64,000 bases of DNA from NCBI GenBank assembly GCA_001784285.1, contig MFQC01000003.1:221517-285516 (forward strand), written 5' to 3'. Source of the DNA: Candidatus Magasanikbacteria bacterium RIFCSPHIGHO2_02_FULL_48_18 (lineage in GTDB: Bacteria; Patescibacteriota; Patescibacteriia; Magasanikbacterales; UBA922). Position numbers and translations under genes: made by a program. This document shows, piece after piece, positions 2,256 to 42,344 of the stretch; within the stretch, counting starts at the first letter, position 1; each line of letters starts with the position of its first letter. The notes beneath the pieces are model-generated. The model was not told where the DNA came from and searched no databases. It saw only the letters and a list, made by a program, of their open reading frames with translations.

Positions 2256-2358
2256 AGTTGTCTAAGTTAAAACTAAGTTTGCTAAGTTGTCTCAGTTTGC
2301 TAAGTTGTCCCGGTTAATTTGGTTAACTAAGAAAACTGAACCAACTGAGCGAACCAAG

Positions 2359-3045
2359 CTAACCCAGCAACATCTCTTTTGTAATCTCAAAAAGACTGTT
2401 GACTTCAATATCCGCCTTCGACAAATCTTGTTTCGCCATTGCATTGCTTCCGGAATAATGAACGCCAATACAGCGCATCCCGGCGGCTTTTGCGGCGATA
2501 ACTCCCTTAGCCGCGTCTTCCAAAACGACGCAATGTTCTTCCGGCAGAGCAAGCTGTTGCGCCGTCACCAAAAACGTTTCCGGATCTGGTTTGCCTCGAT
2601 GTAGATTTTCTCCAGACACAACCACATCAAAATATGACTCAAGGCCCAACTGGAGGAGACACAGAGTAATATACTCGAAAGACCCGGAAGAAGCAACGGC
2701 CTTTTTCAATCGTAAATCAAGGACCAGTTCGGTTATTTCTCGGACACCCGGCATGGATTTCCCGTGGCGCTTCACCAAATCAACAAAAAGACGCTGGCGT
2801 TCTCTATACATGTCACCAAAAAATTCTTGAGGAATATGATGGATGGTCATAAGGTCTTTGATCATGTCGCTCACTCGCATCCCCATATATTGTGGATCTG
2901 CATCGTCTCGCAAAAACGGGCCGCTCACATACCGCTCCAAAACCAAACGCGTGGCTTCTGTATGACAAGATACATTATCCACCAACACTTCATCCAAATC
3001 AAAAATAATGGCATCTGTCTGTGTCATATCGTTTATACTACTCAT
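2359..3045 (-). CDS. HAD-superfamily hydrolase (beta-phosphoglucomutase-like phosphatase)
   Basis: N-terminal DxD motif IIFDLDEVLVDN and HAD-IA like C-terminus (GDxxxD). ATG at 3045 overlaps the upstream stop (ATGA) at 3042-3045. Confidence 0.8.
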   Translation of the reverse strand: MSSINDMTQTDAIIFDLDEVLVDNVSCHTEATRLVLERYVSGPFLRDDADPQYMGMRVSDMIKDLMTIHHIPQEFFGDMYRERQRLFVDLVKRHGKSMPGVREITELVLDLRLKKAVASSGSFEYITLCLLQLGLESYFDVVVSGENLHRGKPDPETFLVTAQQLALPEEHCVVLEDAAKGVIAAKAAGMRCIGVHYSGSNAMAKQDLSKADIEVNSLFEITKEMLLG

Positions 3046-4007
3046 ACGCGTCGCAAGGTGGTTATCGGACGGCTTTGCGTAATAAAAAATTTTCCGTTTG
3101 CGTATGCCCATTCAATATCGCATGGAAATCCATAGTGGCATTCTACGGCTTTGCAGAGAGCGGCCAGCTCCAAAATATGGCTCGTATCCATTTTTTGTTT
3201 TTGCCCTTCTTCGCCAAGAGACACCCATATATTTTGCGCTGAGTGCTCTGTTTCAACAGCAGACGCTCGGACCAATTTTTTTGTTTGATGCCCAACACAC
3301 GTCTCTTCAATCGTCATCGCATCTTTCGCAATCACATAGCTATCGGGCGTGACATAGCCCCCGACAATGGCTTCGCCCAAGCCAAACGCGGCTTCGATAA
3401 TCATATGATTTGGATTTTCCGTCACCGGATGGACCGTAAAGGCCACCCCGGATAGTTCGGACTGAACCATTGTCTGGACGACCACCGCCACTGAAACATC
3501 GTGATCAATCAAATTTTTTTCATGGCGATAAAAAATTGCTCTTGCGGTAAACAAAGAAGACCAGCATTGTTTGATACGAGGCACTATATATTCTCTCGTG
3601 GTGTTGAGATATGTTTCGAGCTCCCCTGCCCAACTGGCGACATCAGAATCTTCCGCAGTCGCGCTCGATCGAACGGCAACGAATGGCGAGTGTAATTGAT
3701 CAAATGCGTGATAGATCTCCTCTATAATCTCAGCCGGAAAAGGAGTGTCATGAATCACATCGCGCAATATAGCGCTGGATCGTTCAATGGAGTTAATATC
3801 CTCCGGATGCGTTTCAGCGAGCCGCGCCGCAATTTCTTGTTTGATCTGTGTTGCCGCTATAAACGAATCAAAGGCGGATGACGGAATAACAAAACCCGGC
3901 GGAACCGGAATGCCTGCCTGCGTCAATTCTCCAAGCGATGCGCCCTTGCCGCCGGCAATCGCAACATCCTTTTTTGTGAGTTGTGAAAACCAAAGAATGG
4001 CGCTCAT
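3042..4007 (-). CDS. stand-alone PEP synthase / PPDK N-terminal nucleotide-binding domain protein (PPDK_N, ATP-grasp-like)
   Basis: GGKGASLGEL, AVRSSATAEDSDVASWAGELETYLN and C-terminal CDIEWA motifs typical of PPDK_N. No swivel or TIM-barrel domain follows (321 aa only). Confidence 0.85.
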   Translation of the reverse strand: MSAILWFSQLTKKDVAIAGGKGASLGELTQAGIPVPPGFVIPSSAFDSFIAATQIKQEIAARLAETHPEDINSIERSSAILRDVIHDTPFPAEIIEEIYHAFDQLHSPFVAVRSSATAEDSDVASWAGELETYLNTTREYIVPRIKQCWSSLFTARAIFYRHEKNLIDHDVSVAVVVQTMVQSELSGVAFTVHPVTENPNHMIIEAAFGLGEAIVGGYVTPDSYVIAKDAMTIEETCVGHQTKKLVRASAVETEHSAQNIWVSLGEEGQKQKMDTSHILELAALCKAVECHYGFPCDIEWAYANGKFFITQSRPITTLRRV

Positions 4008-4198
4008 GAGGCATGCGTGACAGAACGAATAAATCCAACCGTATCAAGTTTGAATTTCTTTTCGAGAATTGCTTCAAGCGCTGTGAGAAAATCATGATTG
4101 TCGCAATGTTCAAGCGCCAATTGCATGAGTTCTTTTCTTTTTTCCACCGGAATTGTTTCAAGAGAAAAAAGAAGGGAAAAAATATGCTGTATCACCAT
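4004..4198 (-). CDS. small hypothetical protein (64 aa) translationally coupled to PPDK_N gene
   Basis: Stop TGA overlaps downstream ATG (ATGA at 4004-4007). Alpha-helical-looking sequence. Sits inside the operon. Confidence 0.4.
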   Translation of the reverse strand: MVIQHIFSLLFSLETIPVEKRKELMQLALEHCDNHDFLTALEAILEKKFKLDTVGFIRSVTHAS

Positions 4199-17788: not shown

Positions 17789-18337
17789 TTATTCGTCTTT
17801 CAATGAAATATATTTTCCTTCTGCGATATTTTTTGCGACTTCATTTGGCTTAAATACGCGCGCGTTCATACATACATAAACGCCCGGATCCAAATCTTGA
17901 ATTTTTGCAATTGCAAAACCGATGTTGAACGGCGCATCGGAGGGAGTAAATCCTTTGAGTGGAATAAACGAACCAGTCAAAATAACCGTTTGATCTTTGC
18001 GCTTCAAATTTCTCTCAAGAAAACGGGCTGTGTCGGGAATGGTATACGTCCCGTGCGTAATAATAATCTTTTTGTGTTTGGTATTTTCTATTTTGCCTAA
18101 AATGGTGTACATGTCGTTTTTTGTAACCTCACGGCTGTCTTTCATCATAATTTCGTCAAAACTCGCCTTGAGATGCACCTCGGAAAAAATCGACTCATTG
18201 TATAAATTGAGTCCTATGATATAATCCGGAATACAAGAGCTTTTATATGGGACAACCGTATCTCGAAGCCCGTCATAATACGAGTCAATGGTTCCGCCGG
18301 TGAGAATAAAATGAATTTGTTGGTCATTTTTTTTCAT
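17789..18337 (-). CDS. asparaginase/glutaminase family protein, N-terminal catalytic domain only (182 aa)
   Basis: ILTGGTIDS threonine-nucleophile motif near N-terminus. Lacks the C-terminal domain of type I/II asparaginases. Confidence 0.6.
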   Translation of the reverse strand: MKKNDQQIHFILTGGTIDSYYDGLRDTVVPYKSSCIPDYIIGLNLYNESIFSEVHLKASFDEIMMKDSREVTKNDMYTILGKIENTKHKKIIITHGTYTIPDTARFLERNLKRKDQTVILTGSFIPLKGFTPSDAPFNIGFAIAKIQDLDPGVYVCMNARVFKPNEVAKNIAEGKYISLKDE

Positions 18338-18675
18338 AGAAAAAGGATAAATAATTTGATCTCAACATAGCATAAAATGCGAAAAAGGTCAAAAAAATTA
18401 ATATTGGAAACGAACTTGTATACAATACTCCAGCCACAAATGATTTTTCTCTTTGTTGAACACAATAAACAAACATGTGCTGTGGACAACCCAATTGACG
18501 AACACACAAAAATCCGTTAGAGTATACCCACTCTATGAAGAACTCCCACACAATACACCTGCGCCGTCGTGCATGCCGTAGCCTGCGCCACAAGCGTGAT
18601 GTGTTTTGTGTATAACGAATTCTCTCCACAACACCCAATCATTCTTCTGGCGCGAGTCAGAAATTTTTATTTATG

Positions 18676-18790
18676 TACGAAACTACGAAATATACGAAAA
18701 TACGAAAGTGAATTGCGAATGGGCTCCCAAATAAAAGAAAAAAATAATAAAAAATGTTCGTAATTTCGTACTGTTCGTATGTTCGCACAT
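18676..18790. repeat. TACGAA(A) x4 direct repeats, A-rich spacer, TTCGTA x4 inverted repeats upstream of argG (copy 1)
   Basis: tgtacgaaactacgaaatatacgaaaatacgaaagtg ... tgttcgtaatttcgtactgttcgtatgttcgcaca. Same family as 20097-20196. Confidence 0.7.
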
Positions 18791-18815
18791 ATTATAATTA
18801 ACTTTAATCACTACT

Positions 18816-20090
18816 ATGAACCACACAACGACTTATAAAAAAATCGCCTCACACGAGGCTGAGAAAGGAGAATTTGATACCTGTCTTCTTCTCTACTCCG
18901 GCGGGCTCGACACATCCGTTATGCTCAAATGGATCCAAGAAGAATATGAATGTACCGTCATCGCCCTCACCATTGATCTTGGCCAAACCGCGGATAACTT
19001 GGAAGAAATAAAACAAAAAGCATTGAACCTTGGGGCCAAAGACGCGATTGTCTATGACGCAAAAGATGAATTTGCTGATATTTTACTGACCGAAGCGATT
19101 AAAGCCAACGCGGATTACCAGGGCGGGTACGCCCTCAGCTGTCCCTTGGGACGGGTGATGATCGCGAAGGTGGCGGTGAAGATTGCGAAACAATACAACT
19201 GCCAAGTGATTGCCCACGGCTCGACCGGAAAAGGAAACGACCAAGTTCGATTTGAAGGATATATTACAACCCTTGATCCTACGCTTAAAACCATAGCGCC
19301 GGTCCGAGAATGGGGCATGGGACGAGATGAAGAAATTGAATACGCCGAAAAAAATAATATTCCGGTAAAACAAAAGAAAGAAAGCCCGTATTCGTACGAC
19401 GAAAATATGTGGGGCAACACCGGAGAAGGCGGAGAAATTGAAAATCCGGAACTTATTCCCCCGCTCCCCAATATTCTCCAATGGTGTGTGACGCCGGAGA
19501 ACGCGCCAAACGAACCGGAACTGCTTGACATTGGATTTGAAAAAGGTATACCGGTTTCAGTGAATGGTGAAAAAAAGAAACTCAGTGATATTGTTAAAAT
19601 ATGCAACGCGATCGGCGCAAAACACGGCGTTGGCGTTATTCATCTTATTGAAGATCGGCTCGTGGGTCTTAAAGTACGGGGCGTCTACGAACAGCCGGGC
19701 GCAACGATTCTTATTGAAGCACACAAAAAACTGGAAAAGCTCGTGTCGACGAGAGAAGAAAACGAGTTAAAAACCATTCTCGACAACAAGTGGGCATATT
19801 TGACCTACGCGGCCAAGTGGTACGACCCGGTGATGTACCATATTCACGCCTACCTCAATAGCCAAAACAAAAAAGTGACCGGCTCGGTCACAGTAAAACT
19901 CCAAAAAGGCGTGGCGACCGTGGTGTCACTCAGTTCGCCATATTCGCTTTTCAACCACAATCTCGCGACGTTCAATAAAAATCCAACATTCAACCAAAAC
20001 GCGTCCGCGGGATTTATTGAAATTTACAACATGGCGCAAAAAACCGCGTATAATGTATATAATTTTGAAAAAGAATTGGATACTAATTAA
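18816..20090 (+). CDS. argG: argininosuccinate synthase
   Basis: YSGGLDTS PP-loop and AHGSTGKGNDQVRFE signature. Confidence 0.95.
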   Translation: MNHTTTYKKIASHEAEKGEFDTCLLLYSGGLDTSVMLKWIQEEYECTVIALTIDLGQTADNLEEIKQKALNLGAKDAIVYDAKDEFADILLTEAIKANADYQGGYALSCPLGRVMIAKVAVKIAKQYNCQVIAHGSTGKGNDQVRFEGYITTLDPTLKTIAPVREWGMGRDEEIEYAEKNNIPVKQKKESPYSYDENMWGNTGEGGEIENPELIPPLPNILQWCVTPENAPNEPELLDIGFEKGIPVSVNGEKKKLSDIVKICNAIGAKHGVGVIHLIEDRLVGLKVRGVYEQPGATILIEAHKKLEKLVSTREENELKTILDNKWAYLTYAAKWYDPVMYHIHAYLNSQNKKVTGSVTVKLQKGVATVVSLSSPYSLFNHNLATFNKNPTFNQNASAGFIEIYNMAQKTAYNVYNFEKELDTN

Positions 20091-20096
20091 ACTCTA

Positions 20097-20196
20097 TGTA
20101 CGAAACTATTTATATACGAAATTACGAACAGTACGAAATTACGAACAGATTTTTATTTCTGATTTCGTATTTTCGTATATTTCGTACTTTCGTACA
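20097..20196. repeat. TACGAA/TTCGTA repeat element (copy 2) in the argG-argH intergenic region
   Basis: tgtacgaaactatttatatacgaaattacgaacagtacgaaattacgaacag / atttcgtattttcgtatatttcgtactttcgtaca. The inverted arm is about 33/35 identical to the direct arm of copy 1. Confidence 0.7.
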
Positions 20197-20233
20197 TACA
20201 TCTCTCCCTGCTTCATTATAAAAATATACGTTT

Positions 20234-21529
20234 ATGTCTAAACTGTGGCAAAAAAAAGAAACCAAACTGCATCCATTGGTGGAGGCCTATACGGTTGGCG
20301 AAGATTATATATTGGATCAGCAACTCATGCCGTTTGATATTGTGGCAAGCAAGGCGCATGCGAAGGGTCTTGAGCGTATTGGTGTACTAGTACATGAAGA
20401 ATTAATACAAATTCTTTCCGCGCTTGAAGCACTCGAAGACGAATGGCGAAACGGAAAAATCACCATTACCATAGAAGATGAGGACTGCCACACGGTGATT
20501 GAAAATTATCTGGTAGAGAAGCTGGGCGACATTGGAAAAAAAATCCATACCGGACGGAGCAGAAACGACCAAGTTTTGGTCGCGATGCGTTTGTTTATGA
20601 AAGCGTCGGCAAAGGACATTATTGACGCGGCAAAAAAATTGGCCGCCACGTTTCTTGCGTTTGGCGAACAATACCAAAATGTGCCGCTTCCCGGCTATAC
20701 TCACACCCAGCAAGCGATGCTTTCAAGCGTGGGCCACTATATGGCAAGCTTTGTTGAAAGTCTGCTTGATGATATTGATCTTTTGATTGCGATACAAAAA
20801 CACATTGACAAAAATCCGTTGGGCAGCGCGGCCGGATTTGGCGTGTCGTTTCCGCTGGATCGAGCGTTTACGACGAAGGAACTTGGATTTAACACAACGC
20901 AAATAAATTCTCTGTATTGCCAAAACAGCAAAGGAAAATTTGAAACGCTGTTTTTGGAAGGACTCACGCAAATCATGATGACGCTCAATAAATTCGCGCA
21001 CGACATGCTGATTTTCACCTCCAAAGAATCGGACTTCTTTGATATTGATGATTCTCTTGTGACCGGATCAAGCATTATGCCGCAAAAACGAAACCTCGAC
21101 ATTATGGAAATTTTACGGGCGAACGCGAGCGTTCTCATGTCGGGCCACGCCATGATTCAATCCATGTCAAAAAATTTGATGTCCGGGTATAACCGTGATT
21201 TGCAGCTTATTAAAAAACCGGTGATGGAAGGGGTGCGTCTGGTCAACGACAGCCTGAACGTGCTTGCGGTATTTATGCAAGGTATCAAACCGAACCAAAA
21301 AAATATTGAAGAAAAAATTACCAAAGATATTTTTATGGCTGATATAGCGAACGACCTCGTGAAAGAAAAAAATATCCCCTTTCGAGATGCCTACCGAGAA
21401 GCCGCGGCAAACAGAGACACATACGTCATAGACTTCCAAAAAAACATTGCGTCAAAAATGAGTCTTGGCGCGCCCGGGAATTTGAATTTGGATGTGTATA
21501 AAGAGCGTCTGAACATGTTGGAGAAATAA
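20234..21529 (+). CDS. argH: argininosuccinate lyase
   Basis: Fumarate-lyase signature GSSIMPQKRN. N-terminal KLWQKK typical of ArgH. Confidence 0.95.
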   Translation: MSKLWQKKETKLHPLVEAYTVGEDYILDQQLMPFDIVASKAHAKGLERIGVLVHEELIQILSALEALEDEWRNGKITITIEDEDCHTVIENYLVEKLGDIGKKIHTGRSRNDQVLVAMRLFMKASAKDIIDAAKKLAATFLAFGEQYQNVPLPGYTHTQQAMLSSVGHYMASFVESLLDDIDLLIAIQKHIDKNPLGSAAGFGVSFPLDRAFTTKELGFNTTQINSLYCQNSKGKFETLFLEGLTQIMMTLNKFAHDMLIFTSKESDFFDIDDSLVTGSSIMPQKRNLDIMEILRANASVLMSGHAMIQSMSKNLMSGYNRDLQLIKKPVMEGVRLVNDSLNVLAVFMQGIKPNQKNIEEKITKDIFMADIANDLVKEKNIPFRDAYREAAANRDTYVIDFQKNIASKMSLGAPGNLNLDVYKERLNMLEK

Positions 21530-39287: not shown

Positions 39288-40253
39288 CTATTGTCTTCCG
39301 TTTTTTTGCATTCTTTTTCTGCGGATAACTCGACGAACAAGATACACGACAAGAAAAAGAAGAAGCCACAGCGGTATATAAATGACCACCCAAATAATGG
39401 CACTAACCAATCCCTTCCCAAGATCGGTCAAACTGCGCATCGCCTCTTTTACAACCGCAATAGGTTTCCAAGAATCGGAATCATCAATTGCCGGAAGCCC
39501 TTCCGGATCGGTCGACAGATACACGGTGAGTGTTGACAGGTCCGCGCTTTGTTTTAAATATTTCATGCGTCCTTCAATTTGTTCAATGTGCGCCCGCACG
39601 GTCGTGAGTTCTCTTTGGACTGCCAAAATATCATCAATTCTAATCGCTTTTTTCATAATTTCCAAAAACTGGCTCTCTGCCGCGCGAAGATTTCCGAGCT
39701 GAGCGTCAAGATCAACATATTCTTCCGTCACATCTTGTCCGTTGACCGAGCGATTCTCCACCTCTCCCATGTTGCTCACGGCCGCAACCGCCGCGTCAAA
39801 CCGCGCAGATGGGATGCGAATAGTAATACTTCCTGATGGAGCAATATCGGCTTGTGAAATTTGGCTCGCGACGACAAATCCTTTTTCTTGACCCGCAAAG
39901 GCGCTAATATCCGCTATCGTCTGTGCGACGTCTTCTACCACCATTGAGAGCGATCCAGTTTTAATAATAAGCCGATTGACTGATCCGTCGTCCGGCTGTC
40001 CCGGTTCTTTTGGACCCGGGGTAGCGGCTTCAAGATCTGCTTTTTGATCGCCAAGTCTATCTAAAGACAAACGCTGTGTCACCCCTCCCAGTGCACCTGT
40101 CTGAGATTCGGATTCGTCGCCTTCATAATATTGGTTATAGGGATAAGAAGTACCCATGGATGTTCCGTAGTAAAATAACACCTTGAACACCCCAACAATA
40201 ATCAAAAGGAGTAATAAAATTCCTCCCAGCCCATACAACATTTTTTTGTTCAT
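39288..40253 (-). CDS. DUF4349 domain membrane protein
   Basis: N-terminal TM, then DVTEEYVDLDAQLGNLRAAESQFLEIMKKA...AVQRELTTVRAHIEQIEGRMKYL typical of DUF4349. C-terminal TM. Confidence 0.7.
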   Translation of the reverse strand: MNKKMLYGLGGILLLLLIIVGVFKVLFYYGTSMGTSYPYNQYYEGDESESQTGALGGVTQRLSLDRLGDQKADLEAATPGPKEPGQPDDGSVNRLIIKTGSLSMVVEDVAQTIADISAFAGQEKGFVVASQISQADIAPSGSITIRIPSARFDAAVAAVSNMGEVENRSVNGQDVTEEYVDLDAQLGNLRAAESQFLEIMKKAIRIDDILAVQRELTTVRAHIEQIEGRMKYLKQSADLSTLTVYLSTDPEGLPAIDDSDSWKPIAVVKEAMRSLTDLGKGLVSAIIWVVIYIPLWLLLFLVVYLVRRVIRRKRMQKNGRQ

Positions 40254-40494
40254 AGAGGATACGTATAAGAGTTAAAAAGAATTGCCTTGAGTATAGCAAA
40301 AAAACAAAAAATAGTCCACGCGATGTGGACTATTTGAAACAGGTTCTAAGCACCCTATCTGCCTTGATTATGGTTCAAAACAGAAGAGGATGGTCGAGTG
40401 TGGGCTAGGACTCGACCGGCAGAGGCGTTTGCGCCTCCTTGTGGAAGAGTTCATCGAACGAACAGCGGGGCCCAGACCGCTGTGGGTGGGGGGA

Positions 40495-41949
40495 TTAGGC
40501 CTGCGCGACGGCCGGGAACGTGGTGATGGAGGTAGAACGGCTGGCCTGCATCGGCTCAACCGCTACCCCCGCCAGCACCTTGCCCGTGACCTCTTCAATA
40601 CCCCCATAGTGGGGGTATCCGGCCTCACGGTAATCCCGGATCATGTCGACCAGGACTTGCAGGGCGGCCCGGAGCTGGTCACCCTGCTTGGAGTGGGTCA
40701 CCCGAAGGCCACGGATGACCTGGCCGTTCTCGATGTCCTGGAAGCCGGACAGTGGGATGCAGTAGGTGAACTTCGGAAGATCACCGTTCCGCTCCCCGTC
40801 CCGAGCCGCGGCGATCGACGCGAGCAGACGGTGGAGAAGGAGCTGGACCTCGTCGAGTTGGGGGTCCTCGAACACCACGACGTCGTAGTAGGCCCCCTGG
40901 CCGGAAATGAGCCGAAGCCCAGAGACGTACCCCAGAACTTCTCTCGCGATGCGTCGGTTGTCGGCCATCTCCTGGTTGAGCGCCCAGAAGTAGGCAGGCA
41001 ACCCCTCCGGCCCGAAGTCGTTCACGAGTACAGCGAGGGCATGCTGTACGTTCATGAAGTTGTTGACTCCGAGCCAGAGGTTGCTCCAGGGGACCAGAAG
41101 TTGCCGGATGCGCCGGTCGAGGGTCGTGAGTCGGCCGAGCCGCGCAGACGTGATGCAGGCCGTCTTGGACCAGGCCGCGGTCGAGATCGTCCGCGAAAGC
41201 CCGAGTTCGAGGATTGAGCGCGGCAGTCCATCGCTGACGCCGTAGTACTCTTCGTCCGCAAGGACGCACGTCTCACGGCGTTGCGGGTCGAGAAGAAAAT
41301 CTCTGACTGCTCCGAGCTCATCGTCGTCCCAGTTCTTAGCGGTCGGGTTTCCCGGCCGCTCGATGACGACGAGACGGCTCTCCTGCTTGACCCGCCGCAA
41401 CAGACTCGGCGTCACACGGAATCCCTCGCTAGGGTCCGTGGTGATGGCCTGCACCGAACGGCCGAGAAGCTTGCAGATGACCGGTGTGTTCGGCCAGGAA
41501 GGCCGAAACACGGTTACCAGATCTCCTGGCCGTGTGACGAGATTGATCGCCCCAAAGACAGCCCCGATCCCCCCGGGGGTGATCATGCTGTCCTCGGAGG
41601 TGATCCGGACTCCAGTCATCCCTGTCAGGTTCTGGGCGAGCGCGTCGAGAAGCACCTGCTCGCCGAAGGCCTGAGGGTAGGACTCGGGGTGACGCGGGTC
41701 GGCCACGATCGCGCGATAGATGCGATCCGGCGGCAAACGCGACAGACTGCCGACCGCGAGATGTGTGACCGGAACGCCGAGCTTTTCCGCGGTGCGGACG
41801 AGTGGGCGAAGCCGCCGAAGAATCGGCGTCTCGCCCATCATGACCAGGTTTGTCGGGTTCAAGTGGTACGCCCCCTGGCTCGGGCGTTCCACCGTGGTTC
41901 TTGCGCCATAGCCAAGGGCGGCCATAAGCGCTTCACCGGTTGGAGCCAT
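40495..41949 (-). CDS. class I/II PLP-dependent aminotransferase, high-GC foreign gene
   Basis: AWSKTACITSARLGRL (PLP-lysine motif SxSKxxxxxGxRxG) and ERPGNPT. GC3-biased codons, roughly 62% GC versus about 45% background (visual estimate). Start MAPTGEAL at 41949. Confidence 0.8.
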   Translation of the reverse strand: MAPTGEALMAALGYGARTTVERPSQGAYHLNPTNLVMMGETPILRRLRPLVRTAEKLGVPVTHLAVGSLSRLPPDRIYRAIVADPRHPESYPQAFGEQVLLDALAQNLTGMTGVRITSEDSMITPGGIGAVFGAINLVTRPGDLVTVFRPSWPNTPVICKLLGRSVQAITTDPSEGFRVTPSLLRRVKQESRLVVIERPGNPTAKNWDDDELGAVRDFLLDPQRRETCVLADEEYYGVSDGLPRSILELGLSRTISTAAWSKTACITSARLGRLTTLDRRIRQLLVPWSNLWLGVNNFMNVQHALAVLVNDFGPEGLPAYFWALNQEMADNRRIAREVLGYVSGLRLISGQGAYYDVVVFEDPQLDEVQLLLHRLLASIAAARDGERNGDLPKFTYCIPLSGFQDIENGQVIRGLRVTHSKQGDQLRAALQVLVDMIRDYREAGYPHYGGIEEVTGKVLAGVAVEPMQASRSTSITTFPAVAQA

Positions 41950-42182
41950 AACTGCTCTCCTCTGGTTTTTGGTTTTGGCAGTCCCCTTGTGAAACTGCCG
42001 TGAATGGCGTTTTGCCTCAAAACCCAAATTCGGACAGACAGGATGTCCAAAACAGGGTCGCAAAAACGAGGGCGCCACCCTCGTTGAAGCCCGCGGTCCT
42101 CCATCTCCGCGGTTGAGAAAAAGTAAACTTGATTTTTGATGAACAAAGGACTTTACCCCGACAAAAGTCGGGACAAAGATCC

Positions 42183-42267
42183 TGGTGGGCCGGGCAGGAT
42201 TCGAACCTGCGAAGGCAGAGCCAACAGATTTACAGTCTGTCCTCGTTGACCGCTTGAGTACCGACCC
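42183..42267 (-). tRNA. tRNA-Tyr (anticodon GTA), long variable arm, CCA encoded
   Basis: Manual fold: acceptor GGGTCGG/CCGGCCC, anticodon stem ACAGA/TCTGT, loop CT-GTA-AA, T arm GCAGG-TTCGAAT-CCTGC, 85 nt. Confidence 0.85.
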
Positions 42268-42271
42268 CTCG

Positions 42272-42344
42272 AGCCATCTCGGGGATTCGAACCCCGGACC
42301 TTCACTTTACAAAAGTGTTGCTCTACCAGCTGAGCTAAGATGGC
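42272..42344 (-). tRNA. tRNA-Thr (anticodon TGT)
   Basis: Acceptor GCCATCT/AGATGGC, D stem GCTC/GAGC, anticodon loop TT-TGT-AA, T arm CGGGG-TTCGAAT-CCCCG, discriminator T. Lies 4 nt from tRNA-Tyr. Confidence 0.85.

Follow-up and report, generated by a model that had tools for sequence, protein, structure and literature searches.

Iterated hexamer arrays flanking argG in a Magasanikbacteria genome as probable gene-less copies of a GxxExxY-associated element

The argininosuccinate synthase gene argG of Candidatus Magasanikbacteria bacterium RIFCSPHIGHO2_02_FULL_48_18 is bracketed by two blocks of iterated TACGAA/TTCGTA hexamers, named here U (upstream of argG) and D (between argG and argH). Both lie in the stretch of 64,000 nucleotides that was analysed (contig MFQC01000003.1, positions 221,517 to 285,516), hereafter the window. 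We propose that U and D are probably non-autonomous, gene-less copies, resembling miniature inverted-repeat transposable elements (MITEs), of a selfish element associated with genes of the GxxExxY family, the arrays being the recognition sites of a predicted nuclease. The initial annotation had offered three roles for these repeats (an arginine-responsive operator, an attenuator or terminator, and a MITE-like repeat that had landed twice), and it is the last that the evidence favours.

A reading of the sequence from 18000 to 20500, a repeat finder and a hexamer search all agree on the two blocks, whose anatomy had been described correctly: each is an imperfect palindrome of about four direct and about four inverted hexamers (Table 1), and the long non-coding stretches that hold them measure 478 nt upstream of argG and 143 nt between argG and argH. 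The hexamers are spaced 8-9-8 bp in all four arms. The similarity already noted between the inverted arm of D and the direct arm of U is borne out, with 95% complementarity over 39 nt between the left arm of U and the right arm of D; for the other two arms (right of U, left of D) the value is 86% over 43 nt. The alignment makes D an inverted copy of U, inter-hexamer bases included, with the differences confined to the centres, which is expected of duplicated copies and not of operators that evolved independently. The hexamer TACGAA as such is not over-represented in the window (36 found against 28.8 +/- 4.5 expected), 16 of the 36 fall within U and D, and a scan tolerating up to 4 mismatches found no four-site array in the window beyond these two.

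The same four-hexamer arms are present at more than 140 public loci, mostly in Patescibacteria, beside unrelated housekeeping genes. A three-hexamer scan of one genome per species returned at least 120 loci, a figure that includes chance matches and simple tandem repeats; in this set of species genomes, at least 20 Patescibacteria loci (Magasanik-, Moran-, Taylor- and Berkelbacteria, Paceibacter and Parcubacteria) have the same four-hexamer arms. The four-hexamer pattern, with its 24 specified bases and a chance expectation estimated near zero, found at least 120 loci in metagenomes, and viral contigs contained no arrays. It had been anticipated that many copies unrelated to arginine genes would speak for a generic MITE; such copies are indeed found across genomes, although not within the window, where there are two only. 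Defining a canonical arm as four sites with at most 2 mismatches gave a set of 192 arms in 128 loci and the window. The dominant architecture of these arms is TTCGTA-nn-TTCGTA-nnn-TTCGTA-n-TTCGTA, a dominance partly owed to the search pattern. Spacing in the family is 7/8-9-7/8 bp, into which the arms of the window fit, and the base preceding each hexamer is A or T. Wherever two canonical arms are paired within 120 nt they converge (37 convergent pairs, 0 divergent), across centres of 3-112 nt. The bases between the hexamers are 47% complementary between partner arms and 40% between shuffled partners (p=0.12); since they are no more complementary than shuffled ones, it is the hexamers that are constrained and not a continuous stem. 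Copies inside one genome share non-essential spacer bases. The density is about one additional element per 44 kb of flanking sequence in related contigs, and 2 per 64 kb in the window.

The arms are the characteristic flanks of GxxExxY genes. At two loci (L173 and L182) they stand some 400 nt from each other and enclose, with 1-12 nt to spare, just one gene (128-136 aa); its product belongs to the GxxExxY family (TIGR04256, 95 and 83 bits) and also matches PF13366 (PDDEXK_3). Seven GxxExxY homologues were found across the loci ascertained by their arrays, and five of the seven are bracketed by arrays, always with TACGAA on one side and TTCGTA on the other, the gene lying in either orientation. 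The association was also approached from the protein: homologues of the L173 product were searched for and eight were examined on their contigs, with canonical or variant arrays at 6 of the 8 independent loci. Loci in cultured organisms, found by tblastn against plasmids and chromids, extend it to other phyla with other motifs (Table 1). Inverted arrays that are not of the TACGAA type (CACAGAGG, ACGCGAAG, ACGCGGAT) flank GxxExxY genes in Bacteroides, Bernardetia, Sphingomonas, Gemmatirosa and an unassigned contig, at the same period of about 8-9 bp, and the motif class tracks the relatedness of the GxxExxY proteins. Two related loci, L248 and L250, which share DsbA and POR-gamma genes, have the GxxExxY gene on opposite sides of POR-gamma, and their hexamer type differs, TTCGTA in one and TTAGTA in the other.

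The GxxExxY protein itself has the features of a nuclease. Its conserved residues are G30, E33, Y36, D72, E82 and K84, and its AlphaFold2 model (mean predicted local distance difference test score 93.9) has its best PDB matches in Cas4, lambda exonuclease, Hjc and splicing endonucleases, with the homing endonuclease I-Bth0305I as one of the weak matches. By sequence, GxxExxY is related to no solved structure, and libraries of defence and phage profiles contain no meaningful match. The family is very large (25,583 clusters at 50% identity, E<=1e-3) and includes many two-domain fusions. Many of the representatives P0229-P0377 are about 260-275 aa long with two GxxExxY domains in tandem, which suggests a functional unit of two or more protomers. 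A catalogue entry lists the function of the family as unknown (PMC3424549); apart from this entry, searches of the literature for GxxExxY, PDDEXK_3, TIGR04256 and PF13366 returned incidental mentions only. Literature searches combining hexamers with Patescibacteria returned nothing relevant, and no association of arrays with GxxExxY was found in the searchable literature.

The genomic context of the arrays is insertional rather than regulon-like. Their neighbours include mreB, ligA, rplP, rpsE, rplB, rplC, rplJ, efp, tsf, clpP, atpG, gatC, grpE, ftsW, trxB, parA, bactofilin and hydrogenase genes, among others, and the junction that is occupied varies between genomes. Within ribosomal-protein operons, it may be that between rplF and rplR, rpsM and rpsK, or L10 and L12, or that directly upstream of rplP, of rpsE, or of rplB after an L22-like gene; recurrence of one junction is confined to near-identical contigs. 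The outer edge of an arm lies at a median distance of 24 nt from a start codon and 9 nt from a stop codon. Element pairs stand mostly between co-directional genes (25 of 28, with 3 divergent and 0 convergent), and solo arms are found at 42 co-directional, 14 divergent and 5 convergent junctions (n=61), the background being 587 co-directional, 94 divergent and 94 convergent junctions. Solo arms at co-directional junctions point either way (25 vs 17), which argues against a strand-specific RNA signal.

The argG locus of relatives is in agreement with this pattern. In three other Magasanikbacteria (L261-L263), the gaps between argG and argH are 4, -4 and 8 nt, and no TACGAA array lies within the 220-335 nt that precede argG. 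Because these loci have no arrays and an abutting or overlapping argH, we infer that both copies of the window are lineage-specific insertions. What the relatives do share with the window is a short leader open reading frame (ORF) with runs of Arg codons (CGT/CGC), followed by a hairpin and a U-run, and in the window the promoter-like TTGACG-17-TAGAGT of the initial annotation is indeed present ahead of it. The hairpin and U-run lie 20-35 nt before argG in all four loci, and the relatives have a homologous hairpin with U6, as judged from single-sequence folds; deleting 18673-18790 from the window in silico leaves a spacing between hairpin and argG as in the relatives. Rfam gave no match to the leader region at E<=10. 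It is more likely that arginine control is explained by this candidate Arg-codon leader-peptide attenuator (18535-18672) than by the repeats.

Table 1. Features of the argG locus in the window, leader peptides of relatives, and array-flanked GxxExxY loci.
Feature or locus	Coordinates	Strand	Setting or neighbouring genes	Description
Promoter-like TTGACG-17-TAGAGT	18495-18523	+	context, outside the repeat	
Leader ORF	18535-18615	+	context only	MKNSHTIHLRRRACRSLRHKRDVFCV; 6 Arg codons (CGY)
Leader terminator	18645-18672	+	U begins directly after	hairpin TTCTGGC-GCGA-GTCAGAA, then T-run
Candidate attenuator, window	18495-18672			promoter-like site, Arg-codon ORF, hairpin and U-run
Element U	18669-18791		between leader terminator and argG start codon	imperfect palindrome; repeat-finder arms 18672-18706 and 18757-18791
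U left arm	18676-18706	+		TACGAA x4 at 18676, 18684, 18693, 18701; 0 mismatches
U centre	18707-18756			50 nt, A-rich, ORF-free, no GxxExxY remnant
U right arm	18757-18787	-		TTCGTA at 18757, 18765, 18774 and TTCGCA at 18782; 1 mismatch
argG (argininosuccinate synthase)	18816-20090	+	host gene flanked by U and D, part of neither	Pfam PF00764, PF20979
Element D	20095-20201		argG-argH spacer	extra outlying hexamer TACGAA at 20099-20104
D left arm	20115-20145	+		TACGAA x4 at 20115, 20123, 20132, 20140
D centre			between left and right arms of D	18 nt
D right arm	20164-20194	-		TTCGTA x4 at 20164, 20172, 20181, 20189
argH (argininosuccinate lyase)	20234-21529	+	separated from argG by D	Pfam
Leader peptide, L261	region 2360-2470			MNKLIQTISFRRRSHFRT
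Leader peptide, L262	region 2329-2480			...GLRRTSHKGQKFRRL
Leader peptide, L263	region 2354-2475			MNYQNYTQNRRRTRAFWKML
L173, L182, L055 (Parcubacteria), L066, L023 (Prevotellaceae)				bracketed GxxExxY genes, found array-first
L247			hydrogenase small and large subunits	canonical bracket
L255			PBP2, greA	canonical bracket
L248			DsbA, POR	right arm canonical, left arm degenerate
L250			after POR	TACTAA/TTAGTA, architecture unchanged
L252, L254				TTCGTA x4 on both sides, direct orientation
L257			between two glycosyltransferase genes	1-2 hexamers only
L260			GC-rich contig	ATTCGTG-type repeats
L170	gene at 2687-3070		unassigned contig	ACGCGGAT / ATCCGCGT arrays flanking gene
L120				arm of TTCGTA/TTCGCA/TTAGTA
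Bacteroides finegoldii			radA, FAD-dependent protein	CACAGAGGA x3 / TCCTCTGTG x3; 30-nt arms, 90% complementary
Bernardetia			adenine deaminase, mannose-1-phosphate guanylyltransferase	CACAGAGA repeats; 28-nt arms, 86% complementary
Sphingomonas			fabD, fabG	ACGCGAAG-type x3; 25-nt arms, 92% complementary
Treponema			hypothetical protein, Fic family protein	single inverted repeat bracketing gene
Fusobacteria			ATP-binding protein, metal-dependent hydrolase	direct 21-bp repeats
Gemmatirosa			neighbours not annotated	gene-less ACGCGGAT x3 palindrome beside gene
Persicobacter			neighbours not annotated	nothing clear around GxxExxY gene
Other-phyla array, L265	1131-1160/1573-1602			
Other-phyla array, L267	1148-1175/1571-1598			
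Other-phyla array, L270	362-386/774-798			
Other-phyla array, L268	805-877			

An arm of the element consists of four (W)TTCGTA hexamers. Paired arms always point towards one another (TACGAA x4 ... TTCGTA x4), and the centre that separates them varies in length; in full-length copies it holds one gene for a GxxExxY protein of 125-135 aa, a nuclease of predicted PD-(D/E)XK fold in which the catalytic D...ExK is kept. The following mechanism can be envisaged. The cognate nuclease may bind or cleave the hexamer arrays that it is presumed to recognise, each hexamer taking up about one protomer and each arm four. The element would be mobile and selfish; its spread would be either a copying process, driven by the nuclease, that reaches new intergenic sites, or homing into arrays that are empty. 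Gene-less copies would be MITE-like derivatives that need the nuclease in trans or are now inert. Under this hypothesis, insertion took place twice in this Magasanikbacteria lineage, once in the interval from the arginine leader terminator to the start codon of argG and once, in inverted form, at the argG-argH junction, and both copies would persist as non-autonomous or relic forms. As a more tentative generalisation, which we put forward as possible rather than probable, GxxExxY proteins may be the nucleases of an undescribed class of tiny selfish elements whose ends are arrays of short repeats (TACGAA in Patescibacteria; CACAGAGG, ACGCGGAT and others elsewhere), with one repeat per protomer and with gene-less arrays seeded at the junctions of housekeeping operons.

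Several observations weigh against the proposal that U and D are gene-less copies of such an element. A bracketed GxxExxY gene is present at only 5 of the approximately 128 array-ascertained loci, and hidden Markov model searches of six-frame translations found neither a GxxExxY gene nor a remnant in the window, nor any remnant in the longer centres of other elements. About 60% of the canonical arms (118 of 192) are solo, with no recognisable partner within 120 nt. The maintenance of one hexamer across deeply diverged Patescibacteria classes is unusual for MITEs, and no target-site duplication was seen by eye, without an empty-site alignment, at the junctions of the window or at the inspected loci. 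At L252-L254 and L264, the flanking arrays are direct and not inverted. In addition, the way in which arms hug start and stop codons and the shortage of convergent gene pairs around the elements would both fit a regulatory role as well.

Since the arrays are so tightly placed at gene boundaries, such a role, as operators or roadblocks, stays a live rival, even if we regard it as unlikely. The arrays would then be operators for a conserved Patescibacteria DNA-binding protein, either GxxExxY or an unrelated small repressor polymerising head-to-tail on four hexamers, which would control or block the adjacent gene (here argG and argH), the bracketed GxxExxY genes being autoregulated. In favour of this rival, arms directly precede start codons or directly follow stop codons. 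Single arms lie between divergent genes more often than expected (14 of 61, for about 7), and convergent genes are depleted around element pairs (0 of 28). Conserved hexamers with free spacer bases are the signature of a protein-binding site, the occurrence of single arms in both orientations relative to transcription fits the recognition of double-stranded DNA, and the 8-9 bp period resembles that of the arrays bound by ribbon-helix-helix proteins (MetJ, omega, ParG). However, the arrays are not kept at orthologous junctions: argG has no arrays in the three relatives and the ribosomal-protein junctions vary. Spacer bases that are not essential are nonetheless common to the copies within a genome, the conserved catalytic residues of GxxExxY point to a nuclease and not to a repressor, and the position of its gene varies between related genomes, as at L248 and L250.

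A role at the RNA level appears improbable. Convergent arms would form a long hairpin in the mRNA, serving as an RNase III-type processing site, as a stabiliser, or as a terminator that sets argG apart from the leader before it and from argH after it. Folding of the two elements gives -27.1 kcal/mol for U (z -2.85) and -35.4 kcal/mol for D (z -7.6), D thus folding far better than shuffled sequence, and 25 of the 28 element pairs are inside operons between co-directional genes. Against this, the inter-hexamer bases of the arms do not covary, the centre may be as short as 3 nt, as long as 112 nt or filled by a whole gene, and most canonical arms are solo, incapable of a local hairpin, and found in either orientation. 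The attenuator or terminator role that had been suggested for the repeats is contradicted in the same way, by inter-hexamer bases that are not kept complementary and by stems of A/T-rich hexamers; there is no G+C-rich stem with a U-run, and the sequence following D is CATACATCTCTCCC. In Rfam scans at gathering scores and at E<=10, U and D had only generic hairpin (miRNA) matches far below gathering scores, tRNAs being the other hits, and no family match.

The reading of the arrays as arginine-responsive operators of the ArgR/AhrC type for argG and argH, which the initial annotation had also raised, is extremely improbable: argG does have a copy on either side, the locus has no other long non-coding stretches, and the hexamers do form palindromic half-sites, yet arrays are missing from argG in the three related genomes, adjoin genes as diverse as mreB, tsf, grpE, clpP, ligA and those of ribosomal proteins and hydrogenases, and do not resemble the ARG box in a by-eye comparison with its consensus, while a conserved Arg-codon leader with a terminator is already in place upstream of argG. 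The ARG box is an 18-bp palindrome (consensus TNTGAATWWWWATTCANW), usually paired, that overlaps arg promoters.

Other candidates were rejected. A small ORF starting at ATG-TACGAA... (7+9+8 = 24 nt) is disrupted by the 8-9-8 and 7-9-7 variants, which shift the frame, and the peptides are not conserved. A promoter as the primary reading, suggested by a 9-bp junction that is always TAnnnT, lacks a -35 at a workable distance, and solo arms precede start codons in both orientations. A DNA uptake sequence does not agree with a hexamer that is not over-represented outside arrays. Integron attC sites, Ter sites and LexA Cheo boxes were set aside on grounds of sequence or context, without a formal test. 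An MraZ operator was dismissed, the boxes in question being separate from the element: in L088 (about 4130-4165, identical in L133), AAAGTG x3 at a 10-bp period, resembling MraZ boxes, stands beside an element upstream of mraZ. The order on the mraZ strand is AAAGTG boxes, element, 12 nt and ATG, which places the element between the likely operator or promoter and the start codon of mraZ.

Some further observations were made on the arrays. The coding sequence of uvrB holds a TACGAA array in two different contigs (L022 1357-1400 and L160 894-923), where 4-5 hexamers in the linker before the C-terminal domain are translated as ...VRNTK(G/N)TKLR...; the reading frame is kept because there are 24 nt between the first and the fourth hexamer. 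A group of low-GC metagenome contigs (L130, L136, L144, L155, L161, L172, L204, L208, L232, L234, L237, L153, L206) has a single TACGAA x4 arm among short tandem repeats (attgttc/attgttt..., gtgataggtgataa..., aattagg...), which are near-identical copies within a contig. These arms may belong to a composite repeat region of another kind. At the argG locus, -10-like sequences lie just outside both right arms, TATAAT (18793-18798) 18 nt before the argG start codon and TATAAA (20217-20222) 12 nt before that of argH, and neither gene has an obvious Shine-Dalgarno sequence. The divergent gene upstream of argG is asparaginase-N-like by Pfam, with dnaG and rpoD following. Elsewhere in the window, the region 40001-42000 has a G+C content of 0.59, compared with 0.42-0.53 in the remainder; it contains overlapping long ORFs at 40495-42078 (-) and 40390-41217 (+) and adjoins tRNA-Tyr and tRNA-Thr genes at 42183-42344.

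For the argG locus, these results remove a tempting but wrong regulatory annotation; the arginine sensor is likely to be the candidate attenuator with its Arg-codon leader. On a wider scale, a very large family of unknown function (TIGR04256/PF13366) is tied to an easily spotted DNA feature, inverted arrays of short repeats at an 8-9 bp period. This tie, in which the array sequence varies with the protein lineage, provides a testable hypothesis on what GxxExxY binds or cuts. If the proposed element is real, it would account for conserved intergenic repeats in the streamlined genomes of Patescibacteria, which have little intergenic DNA and are believed to harbour few selfish elements.

Comparison with known systems helps to place the element. 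The arrays of ribbon-helix-helix proteins (MetJ metboxes, omega heptads, ParG tetramer boxes) have a 7-9 bp period, direct and inverted blocks, conserved cores and free spacers, as here, but no ribbon-helix-helix gene is associated with the present arrays, whose distribution looks insertional and not regulon-like. Homing endonuclease genes such as those of I-Ssp6803I and I-Bth0305I share the sporadic occurrence of a small selfish PD-(D/E)XK nuclease gene between conserved host genes; the known ones have neither bracketing repeat arrays nor abundant gene-less array copies, and array cleavage here is putative. The repetitive extragenic palindromic (REP) sequences and REPINs mobilised by RAYT proteins (Y1 HUH transposases) are likewise palindromic repeats inside operons, homogeneous within a genome and present as singlets and inverted doublets of fixed relative orientation. 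They differ in numbering hundreds of copies per genome, as opposed to 2 per 64 kb here, and in the ends, which here are iterated hexamers, and the fold of the associated gene product, here PD-(D/E)XK; no RAYT gene was noticed among the listed neighbours of the elements, although no search aimed at RAYT was made. With MITEs, the element shares its short length (about 75-125 bp), its non-coding, intergenic and inverted-repeat-bounded nature, multiple mutually similar copies per genome, presence or absence between related genomes, and rarer longer copies with one gene between the same ends. In contrast to MITEs, its ends are four 6-bp direct repeats instead of a simple inverted repeat, its gene encodes a 125-aa PD-(D/E)XK protein instead of a known transposase, its hexamer is conserved across whole bacterial classes with no target-site duplication seen, and its copy number is low (about 1 per 30-45 kb). 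Because of the iterated-hexamer ends, the low copy number and the fact that neither a target-site duplication nor a known transposase or RAYT was seen, we do not assign the element to any described family; in its working, it is most like a MITE with an autonomous partner, or a REP/REPIN, and it shares features of free-standing homing endonuclease genes as well.

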